A stretch of 44,719 bases of DNA from a virus (taxonomy: Duplodnaviria > Heunggongvirae > Uroviricota > Caudoviricetes). Of the stretch, positions 3,592-38,115 are shown in pieces (within the stretch, counting starts at the first letter, position 1; the number at the start of each line of letters is the position of its first letter). Both the position numbers and the translations under genes were made by a program. The notes under the pieces are model-generated. The model was not told the origin of the DNA. It ran no database searches and was given only the letters and a program-made list of their open reading frames with translations. The stretch lies in IMG/VR virus record IMGVR_UViG_2737471862_000003, positions 1 through 44,719 of that record, one strand, 5' to 3'.

Positions 3592-3652
3592 CGTTCACCT
3601 CTCACTGTTTTATAATAAAACGCCCGTTCCCGGACGAACCTCTGTAACACAC

Positions 3653-6600
3653 TCAGACCACGCTGATGCCCAGCGTCTGTTTCTTAATCACCATAACCTG
3701 CACATCGCTGGCAAACGTATCCGGCGGAATATCTGCCGAATGCCGTGTGGACGTAAGCGTGAACGTCAGGATCACGTTTCCCCGACCCGCTGGCATGTCA
3801 ACAATACGGGAGAACACCTGTACCGCCTCGTTCGCCGCGCCATCATAAATCACCGCACCGTTCATCAGTACTTTCAGATAACACATCGAATACGTTGTCC
3901 TGCCGCTGACAGTACGCTTACTTCCGCGAAACGTCAGCGGAAGCACCACTATCTGGCGATCAAAAGGATGGTCATCGGTCACGGTGACAGTACGGGTACC
4001 TGACGGCCAGTCCACACTGCTTTCACGCTGGCGCGGAAAAGCCGCACTCGCCGCCTTTACAATGTCCCCGACGATTTTTTCCGCCCTCAGCGTACCGTTT
4101 ATCGTACAGTTTTCAGCTATCGTCACATTACTGAGCGTCCCGGCGTTCGCATTCACGTTACCACTGATATCGGCATTTTTCGCCGTCAGCCGGCCATCAG
4201 GTGTCAGGGAAAATGCCGGAGGATTACCGCCGCTGGTAATGGTGGGGGCCGTCAGGCGTTTCAGGAACACGTCATTCATGAATATCTGATTGCCCTGCGC
4301 CACAAACATCGGCGTTTCATTCCCGTTTGCCGGGTCAATAAACGCGATACGATTGGCGGCAACCAGAAACTGGCTCAGTTTGCCTTCCTCTGTATCCTCC
4401 ATGCTGAGGCCAAGTCCCGTGACATAATGTCTGCCGTCTCTGGTCTGCTCAATTTTGACGCCCCACATGGCATTCCATTTATCACTGGCGTCTTTCCACT
4501 CTTTCGAAAACTCATCCAGTCTGCTGGCGTTATCCTCCGTCAGGTCGACTTTTTCCAGCAACTCCTTGCCGAGATGAGATTCGGTTATCTTGCCTTTGAA
4601 AAAATCCAGGTAACCTTCCGCATCATCGCTCGCCCGACCGACAGCCTCCACGAATGCCGATTTGCCAACGGTGTTCACACTGCGAACGTAAAAATAATAA
4701 TCATGGCCCGGCCTGATATTGATACTGGCGGCTATCCAGTACAGCGCCGTACCAAGATAACGCGCGCTGGTTTCAACCTGCCTGATATCGGTAATCTGCT
4801 TTTCCGAGAACCAGAACTCAAACTGCACTGTCGGGTCATATACAGCCAGTTTCGGGACCGCCGTTATCTGAAAATAGCCCGGCGTCAGCTCAATCTGTGA
4901 CGGTGCAGCCGGTGCGGCAATCCGGAAAGAGACCGACGCCGCATCGCCCTGTTGCCCCCACGCATTTACCGCCCGGACCGTCAGCGTGTAATGCCCCAGC
5001 GCCAGTTGCCTGAAGCGGTATGTGGTTTCCGTCGTCCTGGCCGTGCTGACCAGCCGCTCACTGCCGTCATCCGCTGCCACGGTCAGGCGAAGCAGGAAGC
5101 TCACGCCCTTCACCACCTTCGGCGTGTCCCAGCGCGCCAGCACCTGATACTCCCCGCTGTCTGCGGTGACTTCGGCGGTCAGGTGCTGCACCGCTGGCGG
5201 CGTGACACCATTCACCGTGCCGCTCTGGTCGCCGTCAAAGTGCGCCCCGTTATCCACGATGGCCTCTTTTTCCGGTACATGCTGCACGGCGGTGATGGCA
5301 TACGTGCCGTCGTCGTTCTCACGGATACTCACGCAGCGGAACAGGCGCTGGCGCAACGTCGGCAGCTTCAGCCCCCATACGCTGTATTCAGCAACGCCGT
5401 CAGGAACACGGCTCACTTTCACCTTCACGCCGTCGGTGACGGACTGAACCTCCACGCTGACCGGACTCCCCTGCCCGTCAACCAGGCTTATCAGCGTGGT
5501 GCCGGAAGATGGCAGCGTGATTTCACGGTCGAGCGTCAGCGTCCGGGTCTGGCTGTTTACCGCCAGCACGCGCCCGCCGGTGCTGATACCGGCATAGTCA
5601 TCATCACAGATTTCAATGACATCGCCCGGCACATGGCGAAGCCCTTCTGCGCCCACGCTGAAGTCCACGGTCTGCGTTTCCAGCAGTTCTGTTTTAATCA
5701 GCCACAGCCCGGCGCGGTGTGCCTGCCCCCGGCTGGTACAGCCAAAAGCATCCATCTTCGTGACGTTACGACCGTAACGGGCAATGGCCTGCGTATCCTC
5801 CACAAGCTCCGTCGCCGTCTCCCAGCCGTTATCCGGGTCAATCCAGTTCACCTCCACGGCATTATGGCGGTCTTTCAGGGCGCTGAAGCTGTAACGGAAC
5901 GGCGCGCCATCATCCGGTATCACCACATTGCTGCGGTTATAGGTCCACACCTTATCCGACGGTCTGTCCTGCACGAACGTCAGCGTCTGTCCGTTCCATA
6001 CCGGCATACAGCGCATCGCCGAGCAGAAATCGCTGAGCACATCCCACGCCTTACGCTGTGATGCCAGATAAGCATTACAGGTGATACGCGGCTCCGTGCC
6101 ACCATAGCCATCCGGTACTGACTGGTCACAGTACTGACCGATAACATACAGGGTCCATTTATCCACCTCCGCTGCCCCGAGACGTTGTCCCATGCCATAA
6201 CGCGGATGGGTGAGCATGTCCCACAGGCACCAGGCCATGTTGTTACTGTATGCCGGTTTAAGTGTCCCGTCCCAGATACCGCTGTACTGCCGCGTCTGTG
6301 GATCATAGTTCGACGGTACCTGCAGAATGCGTCCACGAAGATGGTAATTACGGCCCACCTGCTGGCTGCCGAACTGCTCCGAGTCCACCTGTACACCGAC
6401 CAGTGCCGTGTTCGGGTAGCCCTGTTTCACATCGATGATTTCGGTGTATGACGACCAGAGCGTTTTGTTCTGCAGCTGGTCTGTGGTGCTGTCCGGCGTC
6501 ATTCTGCGCATCCGGATATTAAACGGGCGCGGCGGCAGGTTACCCACCACCACCGAGGCCAGATACTGCGAGGTGGTTTTGCCCTTAATGGTGATGTCTT

Positions 6601-31711: not shown

Positions 31712-32056
31712 TCATCGTAAAACATCCTCCACGCTTGTCAGTCCGTTTCGCTCCAGGTAGTCCATCGCCTTATCCGGCAGTTTGCAGTCCGGCTTCGCTT
31801 TCCTCAGTTGCCAGGCTAACTGCTTTACCTGCATAGTTAACTCGTCGACCAGACGCTGATACCCCACTGGTTTGTATTCATGCAATTTACCGGCTGGCTC
31901 TGCTGCCAGCGATACCAGTGCGATTTCCAGAACAGCAATATCCATCTTATATGTGCGGATGATGTCATTGTCGATTGTGCCCGGTATGCACAATCTCTGT
32001 GCTTCAATAGTCTCCTCTGCGTGAGCTATTAACTGCTCTCTGGTAAAAGTCGTCAT
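31712..32056 (-). CDS. hypothetical 114 aa protein, paralogous N-terminus with the 135 aa protein at 32640-33047
   Basis: The N-terminus ([14 protein letters not shown]...[16 protein letters not shown]) parallels the N-terminus of the other protein (TKEQLIEEAKLKIA...FKIALASLESEP). Confidence 0.5.
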
Positions 32057-32418
32057 GCCGTAGCCCCTTCTTGATATTTTTCAAACCAGAACACAACTGG
32101 GTCAGATTTCATTTCAACCAATCCCATACGAACCAGCGCTTTGCCTTTCCCGGACGCAAGGAATTCACGACGACCATCACTGATAATTCGCCGATAATCT
32201 TCCAGACTACTGCAATGCTTGTGCAGATTGCATGGGTGGCATGCCGGAACCATGTTGGATATATCGTCACGTTCCTGGTGAAGCATATTTCCATCAAAAC
32301 GGATGACCGGTTTTACATGGTCTGCATGCCACTTTTCGCCAAGTTCGCAGCCGCAATAAGCGCAGCGACCACCGAACTTCATGCGCAGTTCTGCACGTTG
32401 TTTTTTCGTCAGTGCCAT
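32053..32418 (-). CDS. HNH endonuclease
   Basis: From the internal ATG: [26 protein letters not shown]...WHADHVKPV...[11 protein letters not shown], a classic HNH motif with two Cys pairs. AT-rich gene with an AAGGA ribosome-binding site. Confidence 0.85.
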
Positions 32419-32419
32419 A

Positions 32420-32659
32420 TCAGCTTTCCTTATACGGATTAATTTTATTGTGCAGTGTGTTGAACGACGCCCACACCACGTCGTTATACAATTCAATAAC
32501 TGGCTCAATTATTTTCCCGATTGCCCAGACAAAAATTAGCGGGGATATCGGTATCATCAATACGATAAACAGAATGAGAAACAAAAATTCTGTCGCTCTA
32601 CTTTTTCGCGGATATTCTTTTCTGAATAATGTAGGCACATCACTCTCCTTTGTTGCCAA
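32420..32659 (-). CDS. possible small membrane protein (79 aa)
   Basis: Hydrophobic core FLFLILFIVLMIPISPLIFVWAIG. The apparent start is non-ATG, so this is uncertain. Confidence 0.3.
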   Translation of the reverse strand: MATKESDVPTLFRKEYPRKSRATEFLFLILFIVLMIPISPLIFVWAIGKIIEPVIELYNDVVWASFNTLHNKINPYKES

Positions 32660-33827: not shown

Positions 33828-34247
33828 CTATATTCCCCAATAGAACGTTAGTATACGCTGCATAACTTCGCTTTCCCGGCACTCACGGCAAATCATGTTC
33901 TGAGGCCTGTCGTAGCGGCGTATTTCTCCGTCTGGTAATGACCAGATAAGGTCCGGAGCAACCACAACCGGTTTCTTCGCCTTTGCCCTCGATAGTTTTT
34001 TGCGGGCGTTTTGCCAGTCCTTACGAGCCTGTTCAGACGGAAATAACCCGTAGCCAGAATTGTATACATCGCCACTGGCAACCAGCTCTCTGGCGAGAAC
34101 ACTCATCAGATATCTTGTCGCACCTGTTTTCGCTTCCAGTTGCCGTAACGTCTCGCGCCAACTCTGGCGTACGAGATCAACGATCTGCCCTTTAATTTTT
34201 TCCCGCTCTTCCTGTGTAAATACTTTTGCCATAAGCGCCTCCGGCAA
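33828..34247 (-). CDS. hypothetical 139 aa protein
   Basis: ORF in operon context, immediately following the stop of the 264 aa gene. Confidence 0.4.
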   Translation of the reverse strand: MPEALMAKVFTQEEREKIKGQIVDLVRQSWRETLRQLEAKTGATRYLMSVLARELVASGDVYNSGYGLFPSEQARKDWQNARKKLSRAKAKKPVVVAPDLIWSLPDGEIRRYDRPQNMICRECRESEVMQRILTFYWGI

Positions 34248-35042
34248 TCACTTTTCCGATACAACACGGCGGGAAGAATCAGTAATCTGTCGAACAATAT
34301 CCCGGTGCTTGTTCAGCTCCCGCAGCGCGGCGCAGACTCGCTCCCACTTCTGGACATGATTTTTCGCCCGACGCAGTTCACGGTTTGCCATATGCAGCGA
34401 TGGTAAAATCAGGTTATCCGCTTGCGTTTCAGTAAACGATGGCAACGACTGCACAATGTCCCCCACAGTATCTGTTTTAATTTCTTCCTGTGTTGCCGCT
34501 TCCTGTCCTGGTAACGCAACACCGGCTGGCTGAGAAAAGGCTTTACCAGGTGTTTTCGCTACCGATACAACTTTCGGCTCTGCTGGTAAATTTTCCCCGG
34601 TTTCTTTTACCAGCATCCACTTACACCCCTTCCCCTGTCCCAGCTTAATCGCCATGCCATCGCGGCAAAGCTTTTCCATCGCAGAAACCAGCGACCTGAC
34701 GCAATCAGCACGCCCCACAGCAATTGCAATCTCAGCGGTGGTCATTGCCCCACCATGAACAAGTGTGGACAGGATGTCGCAGCGTTTCAGTGGCTCACGC
34801 TCTTTTCTGCTGACCACCGGATGGGATTTTCTTTCCACTTTACACACCGTTACTTTTTTTTCTTTCACGCCCGTTTGTCGTTCTGAAACAGACCAGTAAC
34901 CATTAACCGACACAACTTCTCCCTGCTCTTCGTACTCCCGCAACATTTTAATCGCCTCAGCCGGTGCAATGCCCAAACTGGTAGCAAGCTCAGTGCACGT
35001 CACCTTTTGCATCGCTTTTAACGTATCAATCAACGTTTCCAT
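34248..35042 (-). CDS. hypothetical 264 aa protein with N-terminal winged-helix-like region (replication-module position)
   Basis: N-terminus METLIDTLKAMQKVTCTELATSLGIAPAEAIKMLREYEEQGEV looks like a helix-turn-helix. No ATPase motifs were seen. Confidence 0.45.
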   Translation of the reverse strand: METLIDTLKAMQKVTCTELATSLGIAPAEAIKMLREYEEQGEVVSVNGYWSVSERQTGVKEKKVTVCKVERKSHPVVSRKEREPLKRCDILSTLVHGGAMTTAEIAIAVGRADCVRSLVSAMEKLCRDGMAIKLGQGKGCKWMLVKETGENLPAEPKVVSVAKTPGKAFSQPAGVALPGQEAATQEEIKTDTVGDIVQSLPSFTETQADNLILPSLHMANRELRRAKNHVQKWERVCAALRELNKHRDIVRQITDSSRRVVSEK

Positions 35043-35087: not shown

Positions 35088-36308
35088 TTATCCCCTGAAC
35101 CCTGGTGGAATTTCGGTGTCCGGTTCAGAAATGTGATTCACACAACGCTGGTTGTTCGTGCCGCTTACCGGGAGCAACCAGGGGTTTTCAAAATTCCGGT
35201 CCGGTCCAAAAAACGTCGTCGCTCGCTGAACAAATTCCGTTCCCGCTTTCCCGGTCGCCGCCATGTATCTCGCGTAACGCCTCACACCATCCAGCATGGT
35301 CTCTGGTGACACCCCCTCGCGCAATCTGGCCTTCCAGGCACTGAATGCGGATTTCTTCGGGTTTGCCCCGGCACGCAACGGGTATTCCCGCCAGACCTGT
35401 TCGAACACATCCGGATAATCCACTCGTCCCACAGGCCGCCCGGTGTTTTCCGGGACTACCCGATCGGCTTCCCGCTGAATGGCGGAATCGGCTTCAGGCT
35501 GCTGCAGTTGGTGTGATTGCTCCGACCCTGCGGTCATCGCCTGCTGCACAGCGCCCGAATCGGCTTTCAGCGCATACGCCGAATCGGCTTCCGGTGTCGT
35601 GCCTGCTGGCTGACCAGAATTTACGGTCTGAACATCCCCTGCCTGGTTCATGGTGTTTTTTTCGCCATGAACCATAGTGTTTTTGTCCTGTTCCTGTTCT
35701 TTCTCCTGCTCCTGTTCTTGGCTTCGAAGCCCCTTAAAAGCCCCTTCGAAGCCCCTTACCGAATTTCGGCTATTATTCCGCCTCACATCCAGATGGAAAT
35801 CCGTTTTATATCTGTCGTAAAACGCTGACAGAAAAGCGTTTTCAGGTAATGATGCATACTCATTCCTGACACCTGCACAACGGTTATCGCCGGGCTTCAA
35901 CGTTTCCCCAACCTGCCAGGCTGCCATTTCATGGACCCAGACCATCTCTGCATCATGGTCATAGCTACAAAAACCAGCTTCAACAGCCCTTTTAAGCCCC
36001 TTTGAAGCCCCTTCCAGACCAAGCCCGGTTTCATGAGCAAGGTATAAAACTGGCAGGTAATACAAACCCAGCATATTTGCGTGAGGGGATGTCATCAGGT
36101 AAAAAGCAACAACTTGCGCTTCTGCACCCGCCTTTCTAAGTTCTCTCCCCGTTTCTCCCAGCCAGAATCGCGGAGAAACTTTTGCGTAATCACGCATGGC
36201 TACCTCATCTGGTGCCGAACCTTCCTCCGGATATAATCTGTGGTTCCCAATCGACAGAACCAGAGGAGGTTCGACATGTATTTTTTGAAAAGCCTTTATC
36301 AGGCTCAT
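35088..36308 (-). CDS. hypothetical 406 aa protein, candidate replication initiator (contains phased DNA direct repeats)
   Basis: Large ORF downstream of the cro/cII-like genes with an internal Glu/Gln-rich linker (SQEQEQEKEQEQDK). The DNA inside it carries iteron-like repeats. Confidence 0.5.
   Translation of the reverse strand: MSLIKAFQKIHVEPPLVLSIGNHRLYPEEGSAPDEVAMRDYAKVSPRFWLGETGRELRKAGAEAQVVAFYLMTSPHANMLGLYYLPVLYLAHETGLGLEGASKGLKRAVEAGFCSYDHDAEMVWVHEMAAWQVGETLKPGDNRCAGVRNEYASLPENAFLSAFYDRYKTDFHLDVRRNNSRNSVRGFEGAFKGLRSQEQEQEKEQEQDKNTMVHGEKNTMNQAGDVQTVNSGQPAGTTPEADSAYALKADSGAVQQAMTAGSEQSHQLQQPEADSAIQREADRVVPENTGRPVGRVDYPDVFEQVWREYPLRAGANPKKSAFSAWKARLREGVSPETMLDGVRRYARYMAATGKAGTEFVQRATTFFGPDRNFENPWLLPVSGTNNQRCVNHISEPDTEIPPGFRG
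35727..36013. repeat. five copies of AAGCCCCTT in two clusters with 11 bp phasing (iteron-like)
   Basis: Plus-strand copies at about 35727, 35738, 35749, 35994 and 36005. The copies fall in different reading frames, so the repeat is at DNA level rather than protein level. Confidence 0.6.
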
Positions 36309-36414
36309 GTATTAAATGTTGCAGCAACAAACCGCTGGTGTAACAGCCCCGAAATGCTCCCGGATTACAGAGCCTGGCTGCGCGCCGAAACATACCTTCG
36401 TCTCGACATATTGA

Positions 36415-36924
36415 TTAGCGAACTTCAAAAAGAGACTGCATCCATTCATAACCTTCAGGGTATCGACGCTGTTCGCATTCTGGTATCGCGCCATAGTGCT
36501 CTCTCAATAATTGAAGTGCGTCATCTCTCTTTTTCTGAACTGATTTTCTTGCTTCAACCAGCTCTGGAATCAGCGAATATCCCACCGGAAGTGATCCAAT
36601 ACCCACCTCATGTTGACGAGCAGTTACAAGATGTGCCATACAACCAGCGTGCTGGATTGACTCCCTGCTCAGAGGCTGAATGGGATCACTCTCTGCTGAA
36701 GAAATACCAAGATTTGTATAATCCTCAATAAGCCCGGCACACGCTTCTGCATCAGCCAGCTTTATTCTGGTTTCCTTGCGCTGTTCTCTGTCTGACAAAC
36801 GCCAGAGCAGCGCATTAGCTTTATGTATCAACCACTCTGCCAGCTCCACATCAGATAAACCGCCACGCCAGATGTGCGGACTGTTTTCGTAAACGCTCAG
36901 TGTCAATTTTTTGTCATTACTCAT
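36415..36924 (-). CDS. hypothetical 169 aa protein
   Basis: Start at the internal ATG (MSNDKKLTLSVYENSPHIWRGG...). No family recognised. Confidence 0.45.
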   Translation of the reverse strand: MSNDKKLTLSVYENSPHIWRGGLSDVELAEWLIHKANALLWRLSDREQRKETRIKLADAEACAGLIEDYTNLGISSAESDPIQPLSRESIQHAGCMAHLVTARQHEVGIGSLPVGYSLIPELVEARKSVQKKRDDALQLLREHYGAIPECEQRRYPEGYEWMQSLFEVR

Positions 36925-36937
36925 ATTTATTACCCAA

Positions 36938-37363
36938 TTAATGCACAGCCAGAGTGTTTCCTGCCGGGCCACCACGATTCATCTGGTTGAAACCAGCAAT
37001 CGCCACTGCGACAAAATCATCAGCGTCTCTCACCAGTCGTTCCCGCGTCTCCACCAGTTCCCGAAACCAGGCTGAACAGTGGCTGCGCATTCGGGCCACC
37101 AGCAGAGGTGGCATTGCTTTTTCGATCGCTGGTAACAACGCCTGAATTTTTTTAACCGCATCAGGGGTGTCTTTATCCAGCCAACGGAAAATTTTCTGGG
37201 TATTACGAGCCAGCGCTTCCGGATGCCTGTCGTCATATAGCTCCGGGAACGTCATACCCAGCTCAAAATAAGCCTGGGTTATTTCAGCTGCCGGAACTTT
37301 TTCACCGTCCGGATGCGCCCAGGCATTCATCGCCATACGGATGTGTTCATGCTTGATTTTCAT
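36938..37363 (-). CDS. YdaT-like protein (CII-analogue of Rac-type prophages)
   Basis: MKIKHEHIRMAMNAWAHPDGEKVPAAEITQAYFELGMTFPELYDD... resembles Rac YdaT as I remember it. Immediately downstream of the Cro-like gene. Confidence 0.6.
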   Translation of the reverse strand: MKIKHEHIRMAMNAWAHPDGEKVPAAEITQAYFELGMTFPELYDDRHPEALARNTQKIFRWLDKDTPDAVKKIQALLPAIEKAMPPLLVARMRSHCSAWFRELVETRERLVRDADDFVAVAIAGFNQMNRGGPAGNTLAVH

Positions 37364-37622
37364 GAATCAACTCCGGTGTATTTGGTGTGTTAGCCTTATC
37401 TCCAGCAGGCAACCCGTCAGTTGGATTCGGGTATAAATCTGGTCGCAATTCATGAGGAGTAACCCCAGTTGCAATATAAATTTGACGAACCCGTTCCCCC
37501 GTCGGAACTCGACCATTGTATTCATTTGCCCATTTGTGTATTTGAGATGGCCAAGCCCCTATTGCACGCCCTAGAGGACGAATACCACCAGCAATCTTTA
37601 TTGCTTTGTCCAATGCTGTCAT
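37347..37622 (-). CDS. Cro-like / YdaS-family helix-turn-helix regulator
   Basis: 91 aa (MTALDKAIKIAGGIRPLGRAIGAWPSQIHKW...TGVTPHELRPDLY), divergently transcribed from the repressor gene. Confidence 0.75.
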   Translation of the reverse strand: MTALDKAIKIAGGIRPLGRAIGAWPSQIHKWANEYNGRVPTGERVRQIYIATGVTPHELRPDLYPNPTDGLPAGDKANTPNTPELIHENQA

Positions 37623-37725: not shown

Positions 37726-38115
37726 ATGGACATGAGAAAAAAGCAATACGACACCCCGCTAGCAGAAAGGTTAGATGCGATCTCTCAACAGCATCATTTA
37801 AGTGGTTCAGATTTAGCGCGTATCGCTGGTGTAGGTCGTTCATCAGTCAACGCATGGAAAAAAAGAGGAACAATCAGTAAAGATTCCGCAGCCAAAATTG
37901 CAGAAGCCACAAACGTTTCCCTTTCTTGGCTACTGACAGGGAAAGAAGAGACAAATAGAGAAGCGCTTGATGATGACGAGAAGGCCCTGCTTGATGTTTA
38001 CAGAAACCTGCCACCTGTAGAACGTAGAAATATGCTGGCAGCTTTTCAAATGCGACTTCAAAAACTGACCGAATTTTACTCAGAATACGTCGACCCAATA
38101 ACACGACAAAAATAA
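37726..38115 (+). CDS. prophage repressor (CI-like, XRE helix-turn-helix, no peptidase domain)
   Basis: 129 aa with helix-turn-helix LSGSDLARIAGVGRSSVNAWKKRG, divergent from the cro-like gene and followed by a strong terminator. Confidence 0.8.
   Translation: MDMRKKQYDTPLAERLDAISQQHHLSGSDLARIAGVGRSSVNAWKKRGTISKDSAAKIAEATNVSLSWLLTGKEETNREALDDDEKALLDVYRNLPPVERRNMLAAFQMRLQKLTEFYSEYVDPITRQK

Follow-up and report, generated by a model that had tools for sequence, protein, structure and literature searches.

Arrays of 11-bp repeats inside a putative initiator gene as the probable replication origin of a prophage

Why should a phage gene carry several copies of the same short sequence inside its coding region? 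The gene considered here lies on the minus strand of the IMG/VR virus record IMGVR_UViG_2737471862_000003 (Caudoviricetes), which we have analysed over its whole length of 44,719 bp and which we call the window. An earlier reading of this sequence (the original prediction) noticed five copies of a short repeat inside a gene of the replication module, and proposed that the gene codes for a replication initiator and contains the origin, as gene O of phage lambda does. We have found that the repeats are almost certainly functional DNA elements. They form two arrays inside the gene. Comparison of the homologues makes it likely that these arrays are the binding sites of the initiator encoded by the same gene, and that they constitute the replication origin of the prophage.

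The 9-mer AAGCCCCTT has five exact copies on the plus strand of the window: three of them start in positions 35727, 35738 and 35749 and form array A, the other two start in positions 35994 and 36005 and form array B. The spacing is exactly 11 bp within both arrays, which are about 250 bp apart. No other copy is found on either strand of the whole window. By chance 0.36 copies are expected, and none of 100 shuffled sequences with preserved dinucleotides had at least five. Tandem Repeats Finder independently gives two arrays of period 11, in positions 35727–35758 (2.9 copies) and 35987–36013 (2.5 copies). Array B also has a degenerate third copy near position 35983. The five copies in two clusters had thus been correctly recognized, and only their unit has to be changed: the real repeat is not the 9-mer (in the coding strand AAGGGGCTT), it is the 11-mer GAAGGGGCTTC, which in the coding strand has the form GAAG-GGG-CTTC, whose arms are palindromic around an asymmetric G/C core. 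On the minus strand the motif starts at codon positions 2, 1, 3, 2 and 1 of codons 62, 66, 147, 151 and 155, and the five copies code for EGA, KGL, (V)RGF, EGA and KGL. All three reading phases are occupied, in agreement with the claim that the copies fall in different frames. The proximity of a Gln/Glu-rich linker, also pointed out before, is confirmed: the stretch RSQEQEQEKEQEQ (35678–35720), which we call the QE tract, directly adjoins array A. A scan of the origin region for DnaA boxes and for sites of the integration host factor gave nothing convincing, and the region has no match in Rfam.

Homologues of the N-terminal domain of the protein (the N-domain) were gathered from protein and contig collections and used to build a codon alignment. 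It contains 79 genes with mutual nucleotide identities below 85%; they are 38–74% identical to the window, and the GC content of their third codon positions (GC3) goes from 0.28 to 0.85. The codons of array B are nearly fixed: GAA in 100% of the genes, GGG in 96%, GCT in 85%, AAG in 97%, GGG in 86% and CTT in 92%. The Ser codon which follows array A is AGC in 99% of them. Elsewhere in the N-domain the codons of conserved residues have a synonymous variation close to saturation. The homologues have diverged enough for a test of synonymous sites, because the third base of Ser65, the only position within array B which does not belong to a 9-mer, varies freely (A in 9 genes, C in 14, G in 46 and T in 10). 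The counts show quantitatively that the repeats are conserved as DNA and not as protein.

The orientation of the arrays leads in the same direction. The peptide EGASKGL is invariant in the family, and the protein of the window also contains EGAFKGL, encoded by array A. In the position of array A the homologues have two to four copies in either orientation. In many of them the array is found on the opposite strand (GAAGCCCCTTC) and codes for EAPSEPL or EAPSKPL, not for EGAFKGL; such flipped lineages include the Shiga toxin (Stx) phages PhiR5_2, 75/02 and phiSTEC1589, as well as prophages of Caldimonas, Stenotrophomonas and Methyloversatilis. Since these flips alter the peptide, it is the DNA which is constrained, and the peptide can change freely. 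A motif scan of 297 kb of homologous loci places the matches in two clusters, in nucleotides 100–200 (141 matches) and 400–500 (165 matches) of the gene, and 153 of the 174 intervals within arrays are of 11 bp. The commonest layout in the family is inverted, with array B as >> and array A as << or <<<. Several Klebsiella-type lineages are direct, as is the window.

The most distant homologues, with 23–30% amino acid identity (loci L011–L015), do not have GAAGGGGCTTC at all. They have other short tandem repeats, and these are found in the same two places. We enlarged this distant subfamily to 69 genes with less than 80% amino acid identity and determined de novo the most repeated 8-mer of each gene, with the QE tract masked. 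In most cases it is similar to GAAGCCTTC, with a spacing of 12 bp; among the variants are AAGGGTTT, GAACCGTT, TTCGAAAG, CGAAACCG, AAGCCTAC and AAGACTTT, and each variant is present at both sites. Most genes which have a QE tract (48 of 54) contain at least two sites of their own 8-mer in the helix-coding segment where array B lies and at least two in the segment of 130 nt which precedes the QE tract, and 418 of all 466 sites fall within these two segments. The observed median is 8.5 sites, against a median of 5 and a maximum of 7 in a codon-permuted control. The two sites of the same gene share on average 7.1 exact 9-mers; the figure is 2.6 when site B is compared with site A of other genes, and 0.19 when it is compared with a control segment of the same gene. 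The observed mean was not reached in any of 2000 permuted pairings. Such co-variation fits a sequence-specific protein and its sites which would have diverged together, and, as it can be measured, the family is a possible model for the evolution of initiator–origin specificity. Selection at the DNA level, which had been suggested by the reading frames, is therefore shown quantitatively: synonymous sites are nearly fixed, orientation flips give another peptide, and in distant relatives the two arrays have changed in concert. An absence of the repeats from homologues was also looked for: close homologues have them, and so do very distant ones.

What kind of protein does the gene encode? It had been described as a gene of the replication module with 406 amino acids; the role is upheld by PHROG matches, fold and position, and the length is not. 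The homologues, the PHROG matches (which begin at residue 38) and the PGAP annotation agree on a start at Met38 of the 406 amino acid open reading frame (ORF). The ATG at 36197 is preceded, at a distance of 9 nt, by the sequence GAGG, and in an identical E. coli locus PGAP has annotated a gene of 1110 nt as a 'DNA-binding protein'. A length of 369 amino acids is clearly more likely; the value of 406 only comes from the longest-ORF rule. The protein has an N-terminal winged-helix domain (about residues 1–145), a low-complexity linker (about 146–258) and a C-terminal domain with a tail similar to DnaT. It matches phrog_1701, 'DnaD-like helicase loader' (4.9e-145), and phrogs 3729 and 270, 'replication initiation protein'; these matches are modular and cover an N-domain (38–224) and a C-domain (250–406), both in the numbering of the 406 amino acid ORF. 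No Pfam family matches the protein, even at E up to 10, and NCBIfam has none for the N-domain. There is no match with Phage_rep_O, the lambda O family, nor is the N-domain hit by PF09681 (Phage_rep_org_N). Some GenBank records call its relatives 'DNA replication protein O'; the gene is still not filed as an O homologue. The NCBI name for relatives of the C-terminal half is 'phage replisome organizer'.

An AlphaFold2 model of the N-domain was built from 70 sequences. Its mean predicted local distance difference test (pLDDT) is 84.7, with values over 90 for residues 10–140. The secondary structure is H25–36, E45–47, H50–57, H60–73, E77–80 and E85–88, which is a classic winged-helix topology, H1-S1-H2-H3-S2-wing-S3. 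A Foldseek search in the PDB found nothing significant: the best E was 0.1, and all neighbours were generic winged helix-turn-helix domains. Among the predicted viral structures of BFVD the N-domain has as neighbour a 'Replisome organizer' (E 3.4e-4, TM 0.63); other named viral neighbours are 'Replication initiator protein', 'Lin1244/Lin1753-like N-terminal', 'Phage replisome organiser N-terminal' and 'DnaD domain'.

The position of the gene is also informative. A repressor similar to CI with a helix-turn-helix (37726–38115, plus strand) is followed by a YdaS/Cro-like gene (37347–37622, minus strand), by YdaT in the position of cII (36938–37363, minus strand) and then by the gene studied here, which thus occupies the place of lambda O, downstream of cI, cro-like and cII-like genes. 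In its relatives the next gene downstream codes for an IstB/DnaC-like AAA+ protein (E. coli Stx phages, Klebsiella, Acinetobacter), for a DnaB helicase (Stenotrophomonas) or for a Toprim-helicase (primase-helicase). The PHROG replication families, a winged-helix N-domain close to replisome organizers and initiators, the position of lambda O and the helicase or loader genes which follow it in homologues all favour what had been proposed: the ORF looks like a replication initiator. The window encodes no DnaC- or P-like loader next to the gene, as had been noted; many homologues do have one. The genes downstream in the window are DUF1627 (264 amino acids) and then DUF977, PHROG 'Ren-like exclusion protein' (34248–35042 and 33828–34247). 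The order in Stx phages is initiator, DnaC-like, YdaW/DUF1627, DUF977. It appears from this comparison that the prophage of the window has lost its loader gene or has never acquired it.

Part of the gene has been exchanged between phages. Tritos, Evi and vB_EcoM-606R7 have only the C-terminal half in common with the window, with 94–95% nucleotide identity by megablast. The identity with the Tritos-type genes stops at query position 596, which is position 35683 of the window, just past array A and the QE tract. The N-domain of Tritos has no detectable homology with that of the window (hhalign probability 0.2) and weakly matches PF09681. Tritos has its own arrays, based on CGTGAC: four copies in positions 3645–3683 and four in 3905–3943 of its locus (L003), 260 bp apart. 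The proximal array adjoins a repetitive acidic linker with three TCTTTATCTGTA, which code for TDKD repeats (region 3602–3943 of the same locus). From this layout and from the breakpoint it follows that N-domain, both arrays and linker behave as a single specificity cassette. Throughout the family the QE tract is conserved beside array A, also in genes with different C-terminal domains. N-domain, arrays and QE tract are exchanged between phages as one module, as expected of an initiator–origin specificity unit.

We may now describe how such an origin would work. After derepression, the early operon, in which the initiator gene follows the cro-like and cII-like genes, would produce the initiator of 369 amino acids. 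Its winged-helix domain would bind the GAAGGGGCTTC units, and the phasing of one helical turn would set two or three protomers on the same face of the DNA in each array. The proteins bound at both arrays would interact, with the intervening DNA looped or wrapped. A segment of low stability in the vicinity would then be destabilized, either the A/T- and purine-rich linker DNA (35649–35720) or the region 35783–35864 between the arrays. The C-terminal domain would recruit the helicase; directly downstream, many relatives have a gene for a DnaC-like loader, for DnaB or for a primase-helicase. In the prophage of the window, which has no loader, recruitment would presumably proceed through host DnaB–DnaC or primosome proteins, by way of the DnaT-like tail. 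The interpretation of the gene as an initiator with an intragenic origin is supported at the level of comparative genomics; from it we infer the binding by the N-domain and the site where replication starts.

The location of array B deserves a separate comment. It lies wholly within codons 60–73. These code for H3, the helix of the winged-helix domain which is predicted to be the recognition helix. If the N-domain binds the repeats through H3, a supposition taken from the topology of the model, the reading head and one of its targets would share the same bases, which would be unusual. That the DNA-reading surface (E62–L68 of H3) and its target are specified by the same nucleotides is a tentative suggestion, somewhat less probable than its opposite. 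If it is true, a change in the iteron is a change in the reading head, the second array following by concerted change, and the specificities of initiator and origin are physically coupled. This could explain the diversification into many private initiator–origin pairs (GAAGGGGCTTC, GAAGCCTTC, AAGGGTTT, GAACCGTT and others) in about 5,700 cluster representatives. It would be an unusually clean natural case of dual coding, with a predicted protein-binding array and a putative recognition helix on the same bases.

The organization also matches that of RepA_N plasmids, whose initiators are found in Gram-positive bacteria, such as RepA of pSK41 and pTZ2162 (PDB 4pta). In phage lambda and in the lambda-type Stx phages, the middle of gene O contains iterons together with an AT-rich tract (PMC7466680). 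As in lambda and in the Stx phages 933W and P27 (PMC7466680), the initiator gene is found here in the early right operon after cro and cII; the origin repeats are within the coding sequence of the initiator, beside a stretch which codes for a low-complexity linker; and the N-terminal half together with the origin forms an exchangeable specificity module, with the C-terminal half left for helicase recruitment. The differences are also clear. There is no detectable homology with Phage_rep_O. The units are 11-bp head-to-tail repeats spaced by one helical turn, whereas lambda has four to six iterons of 18–19 bp. They form two arrays about 250 bp apart and not one block, and one of the arrays is found within the DNA which codes for the predicted recognition helix, whereas the lambda iterons are in the linker-coding part of O. 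A pronounced AT-rich tract is missing. There is no P-type loader: the relatives use DnaC-like, DnaB or primase-helicase genes, and the prophage of the window encodes none of them. The analogy with lambda which had been drawn is thus valid for the organization, with origin repeats inside an initiator gene, and does not extend to a homology of the protein with O, since Pfam gives no match.

Phage SPP1 offers a second comparison: its oriL is inside gene 38 and is bound by gp38, the product of the same gene (PMC6316719). The likeness is that gp38 (G38P) binds direct repeats in its own gene (PMC6316719), as we predict here, and that the BFVD neighbours of the N-domain include a replisome organizer and Phage_rep_org_N, the family of the SPP1, lactococcal and streptococcal proteins. 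In contrast with SPP1, PF09681 does not match the N-domain, the hosts are Proteobacteria, and the motif is confined to the gene, whereas SPP1 has a second origin, oriR, elsewhere. E. coli DnaT resembles the protein only in the C-terminal tail (E about 0.01), the rest being unrelated. What is known is the principle of an origin inside an initiator gene; what appears to be new is the family, the 11-mer iteron of one helical turn, the architecture with two arrays and the predicted overlap of an array with the recognition helix.

Several points weigh against an origin. The fold of the N-domain is a generic winged helix with transcription factors as its best PDB neighbours, and an autoregulatory operator would fit the same data. 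No strongly AT-rich unwinding element is found: the least stable 40-mers have 35–40% GC, and in the QE tract the GC content falls by only about 0.07 with respect to the locus. There is no loader gene nearby, so that competence for replication would need the proposed route through host proteins, and the prophage could be defective. The all-direct layout of the window is a minority form in the family. Literature searches gave no binding or origin-firing experiment for any member of the family: the motif retrieved only unrelated primers and siRNAs, the papers on lambdoid and Stx replication origins and on 'Eru' typing describe no origin for this type of gene, and the Eru-typing papers discuss neither origins nor repeats. 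True plasmids have essentially no copies of the N-domain and therefore give no independent sign of autonomous replication. The only small 'plasmid' that was hit, a Klebsiella record of 32 kb (NZ_CP069825.1), is linear and has chromosomal genes together with a prophage with the replication module (integrase, RecE/RecT, Cro, YdaT, N-domain protein, ATP-binding protein and DUF977); it is probably a misassigned chromosomal contig.

The alternatives must be judged on the same data. The arrays might bind this or another phage protein for a regulatory purpose, as an autoregulatory operator or roadblock, in a 'handcuffing' control of copy number or as an exclusion site, with the origin elsewhere. The closest solved folds, which are the transcription factors CRP/Vfr, MarR and ArsR, would agree with it, as would the lack of a clear AT-rich unwinding element, and two arrays about 250 bp apart are equally suited for looping in the style of a repressor. 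We consider it unlikely, as the named viral fold neighbours and the PHROG matches are replication proteins, helicase-loader or helicase genes come directly after the gene in its relatives, and the arrays travel with the N-domain module, like the lambda origin with the N-terminal half of O. Furthermore the exact motif is found nowhere else in the 44.7 kb, which leaves no alternative origin with such sites in the window. A structure of the nucleic acid itself has a still smaller probability: the conserved nucleotides would form a long-range mRNA stem which influences translation or stability, or a hairpin of single-stranded DNA such as a primosome-assembly signal. Arrays B and A are indeed mutually complementary in most members of the family, in which the inverted architecture is commonest, and in the homologue of the Stx phage PhiR5_2 (positions 3600–3925 of locus L001) the predicted minimum free energy fold pairs the arrays in a stem of about 21 bp which encloses about 230 nt (z = -4.0); other Stx-type homologues have inverted arrays as well. 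Yet in the window the arrays are direct and equally conserved, and the predicted fold shows no pairing between them; the direct layout is also present in several Klebsiella-type lineages. Strict tandem phasing of 11–12 bp and a variable copy number are typical of protein-binding arrays and are not needed for a stem, and no Rfam family matches.

It is even less probable that the DNA at the domain boundary is just a 'linker' which promotes homologous recombination between modules (domain shuffling) and has no role in binding. Array A and the QE tract mark the junction between one and the same N-domain and a variety of C-terminal domains, and the mosaic breakpoint falls there, which speaks for this explanation. 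It leaves unexplained the array B inside the N-domain, the 11-bp phasing, the flips of orientation and the concerted change of the arrays, and the synonymous sites of the QE tract vary freely. As for a by-product of the peptide motif EGAxKGL, or mere chance, it is effectively refuted. The presence of EGASKGL and EGAFKGL in the protein, the former invariant in the family, speaks for the peptide; the copies occupy all three reading phases, GGG and CTT, which are rare codons, stay fixed in spite of host GC3 values of 0.28–0.85, a flipped motif gives site A a completely different peptide, which is tolerated, and the number of copies expected by chance is far below one (0.36). Binding sites of the initiator which form an origin are thus the explanation we favour.

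The features of the locus are collected in Table 1.

Table 1. Features of the initiator gene and of its repeat arrays (positions in the window)
Feature	Position	Strand	Basis or remarks
Putative initiator ('replisome organizer'-type) gene, 369 aa	35088..36197	-	ORF list, homologue starts, PHROG, PGAP
5' extension of the longest ORF, 37 codons, probably untranslated	36198..36308	-	Missing from all homologues and from the PGAP call
Iteron array A (proximal)	35727..35757	-	Three exact copies spaced by 11 bp at the N-domain/linker boundary; encodes (V)RGFEGAFKGL
Iteron array B (distal)	35983..36013	-	Exact copies 36005–36013 and 35994–36002 and a degenerate third one; encodes E62-G-A-S-K-G-L68
Codons 60–73, helix H3 of the winged-helix domain (predicted recognition helix)	35979..36020	-	AlphaFold2 topology
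(CAR-GAR)n tract, QEQEQEKEQEQ; candidate flank or unwinding element	35678..35720	-	Tandem Repeats Finder, period 6/18
T/A-rich segment with CATgGTGTTTTT twice; candidate DNA-unwinding element	35649..35705	.	Low duplex stability; mosaic breakpoint at about 35683 within it
Least stable duplex between the arrays; alternative candidate unwinding element	35783..35864	.	dG -48.7 and -50.0 kcal/mol per 40 nt, GC 0.35–0.38
Four GAATCGGCTTC-like repeats (EADS peptides) in the linker	35463..35594	-	96-nt in-frame duplication
C-terminal tail RCVNHISEPDTEIPPGFRG, DnaT-like	35091..35162	-	phmmer against PDB sequences

The DNA beside the iterons is at most moderately unstable, in segments with a GC content of 0.35–0.40 at 35666–35705 and 35783–35864. 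The T/A-rich segment in the table has a duplex dG of -49.9 kcal/mol per 40 nt, compared with a mean of -56.7. The QE tract is purine-rich on the coding strand (a fraction of about 0.8), with variable synonymous sites. In the whole family the GC content has a dip of -0.12, located 80–100 nt before the anchor codon which follows array A. Neither the nearest-neighbour stability nor the GC profiles of the family single out one unwinding site. The GAATCGGCTTC repeats were considered as additional iterons; their reverse complement GAAGCCGATTC differs from the iteron in only 2 of 11 positions. They were set aside, since they come from an in-frame duplication and are also present in the Tritos-type genes with another N-domain. 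They are probably not part of the origin specific for the N-domain; they may be weak secondary sites or a mere coincidence.

The C-terminal tail has its own interest. When compared with PDB sequences by phmmer, the last 22–25 residues match the DnaT chains 6aep, 2ru8 and 9zbt with E values of 0.013–0.055. The last 24 residues or so, ending in SEPDTEIPPGFRG, are nearly equal to the C-terminus of DnaT, SEPDNHIPPGFRG. The full-length NCBIfam model of DnaT (PRK02854) failed, with 17.8 bits against a cut-off of 201 (E 0.002), and aligned only residues 383–406 of the 406 amino acid ORF. An identical tail ends two Salmonella homologues (P0030 and P0034) whose middle region differs. Judged from these sequences, it looks like a portable peptide which mimics a host primosome protein, and it is the reason why some records call the homologues 'primosomal protein I'. 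The C-terminal domain of DnaT docks onto PriA and filaments on single-stranded DNA (PMC13377028); the extreme C-terminus is unresolved in the preprimosome paper, which thus does not give the contacts of the tail.

The gene is widespread. Some part of it is present in 2,164 of 5,426 complete E. coli genomes, and 530 of them have the full gene. A profile search with the N-domain and an E limit of 1e-3 retrieved 5,728 cluster representatives, in Proteobacteria and metagenomes, of which the weaker ones may partly reflect the low-complexity QE columns; with a limit of 1e-30 there remain 1,747. Stx-converting phages, among them Shigella phage 75/02, which represents the 'Eru4' type (PMC8951638), have a related form as their replication gene. 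The arrays therefore give a concrete candidate for the origin and for the initiator-binding motif of a common, though unstudied, replication module. Knowledge of the origin would help to predict which prophages can still replicate, bears on the replication-dependent production of Stx, and would allow the construction of ori-plasmids or incompatibility tools. Relatives of the C-terminal half in the databases are mostly frameshifted or truncated E. coli fragments (P0133, P0149, P0150, P0155 and P0157 are examples), which suggests that the gene decays frequently in E. coli prophages.

Some minor observations concern the surroundings of the gene. The neighbourhood of the identical E. coli locus has hokD and dicB, which points to a lambdoid prophage of the Qin/Rac type. 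The early region of the window also has an ORF for an HNH endonuclease, in positions 32053–32508. In 36240–36975 two long ORFs overlap on opposite strands: one on the plus strand (36276–36731), which PGAP calls 'ECs1072 family phage-associated protein', and one on the minus strand (36415–36975, 186 amino acids), which matches phrog_8304 (3.6e-119). It is likely that at most one of them is real, unless they form a genuine antisense gene pair.

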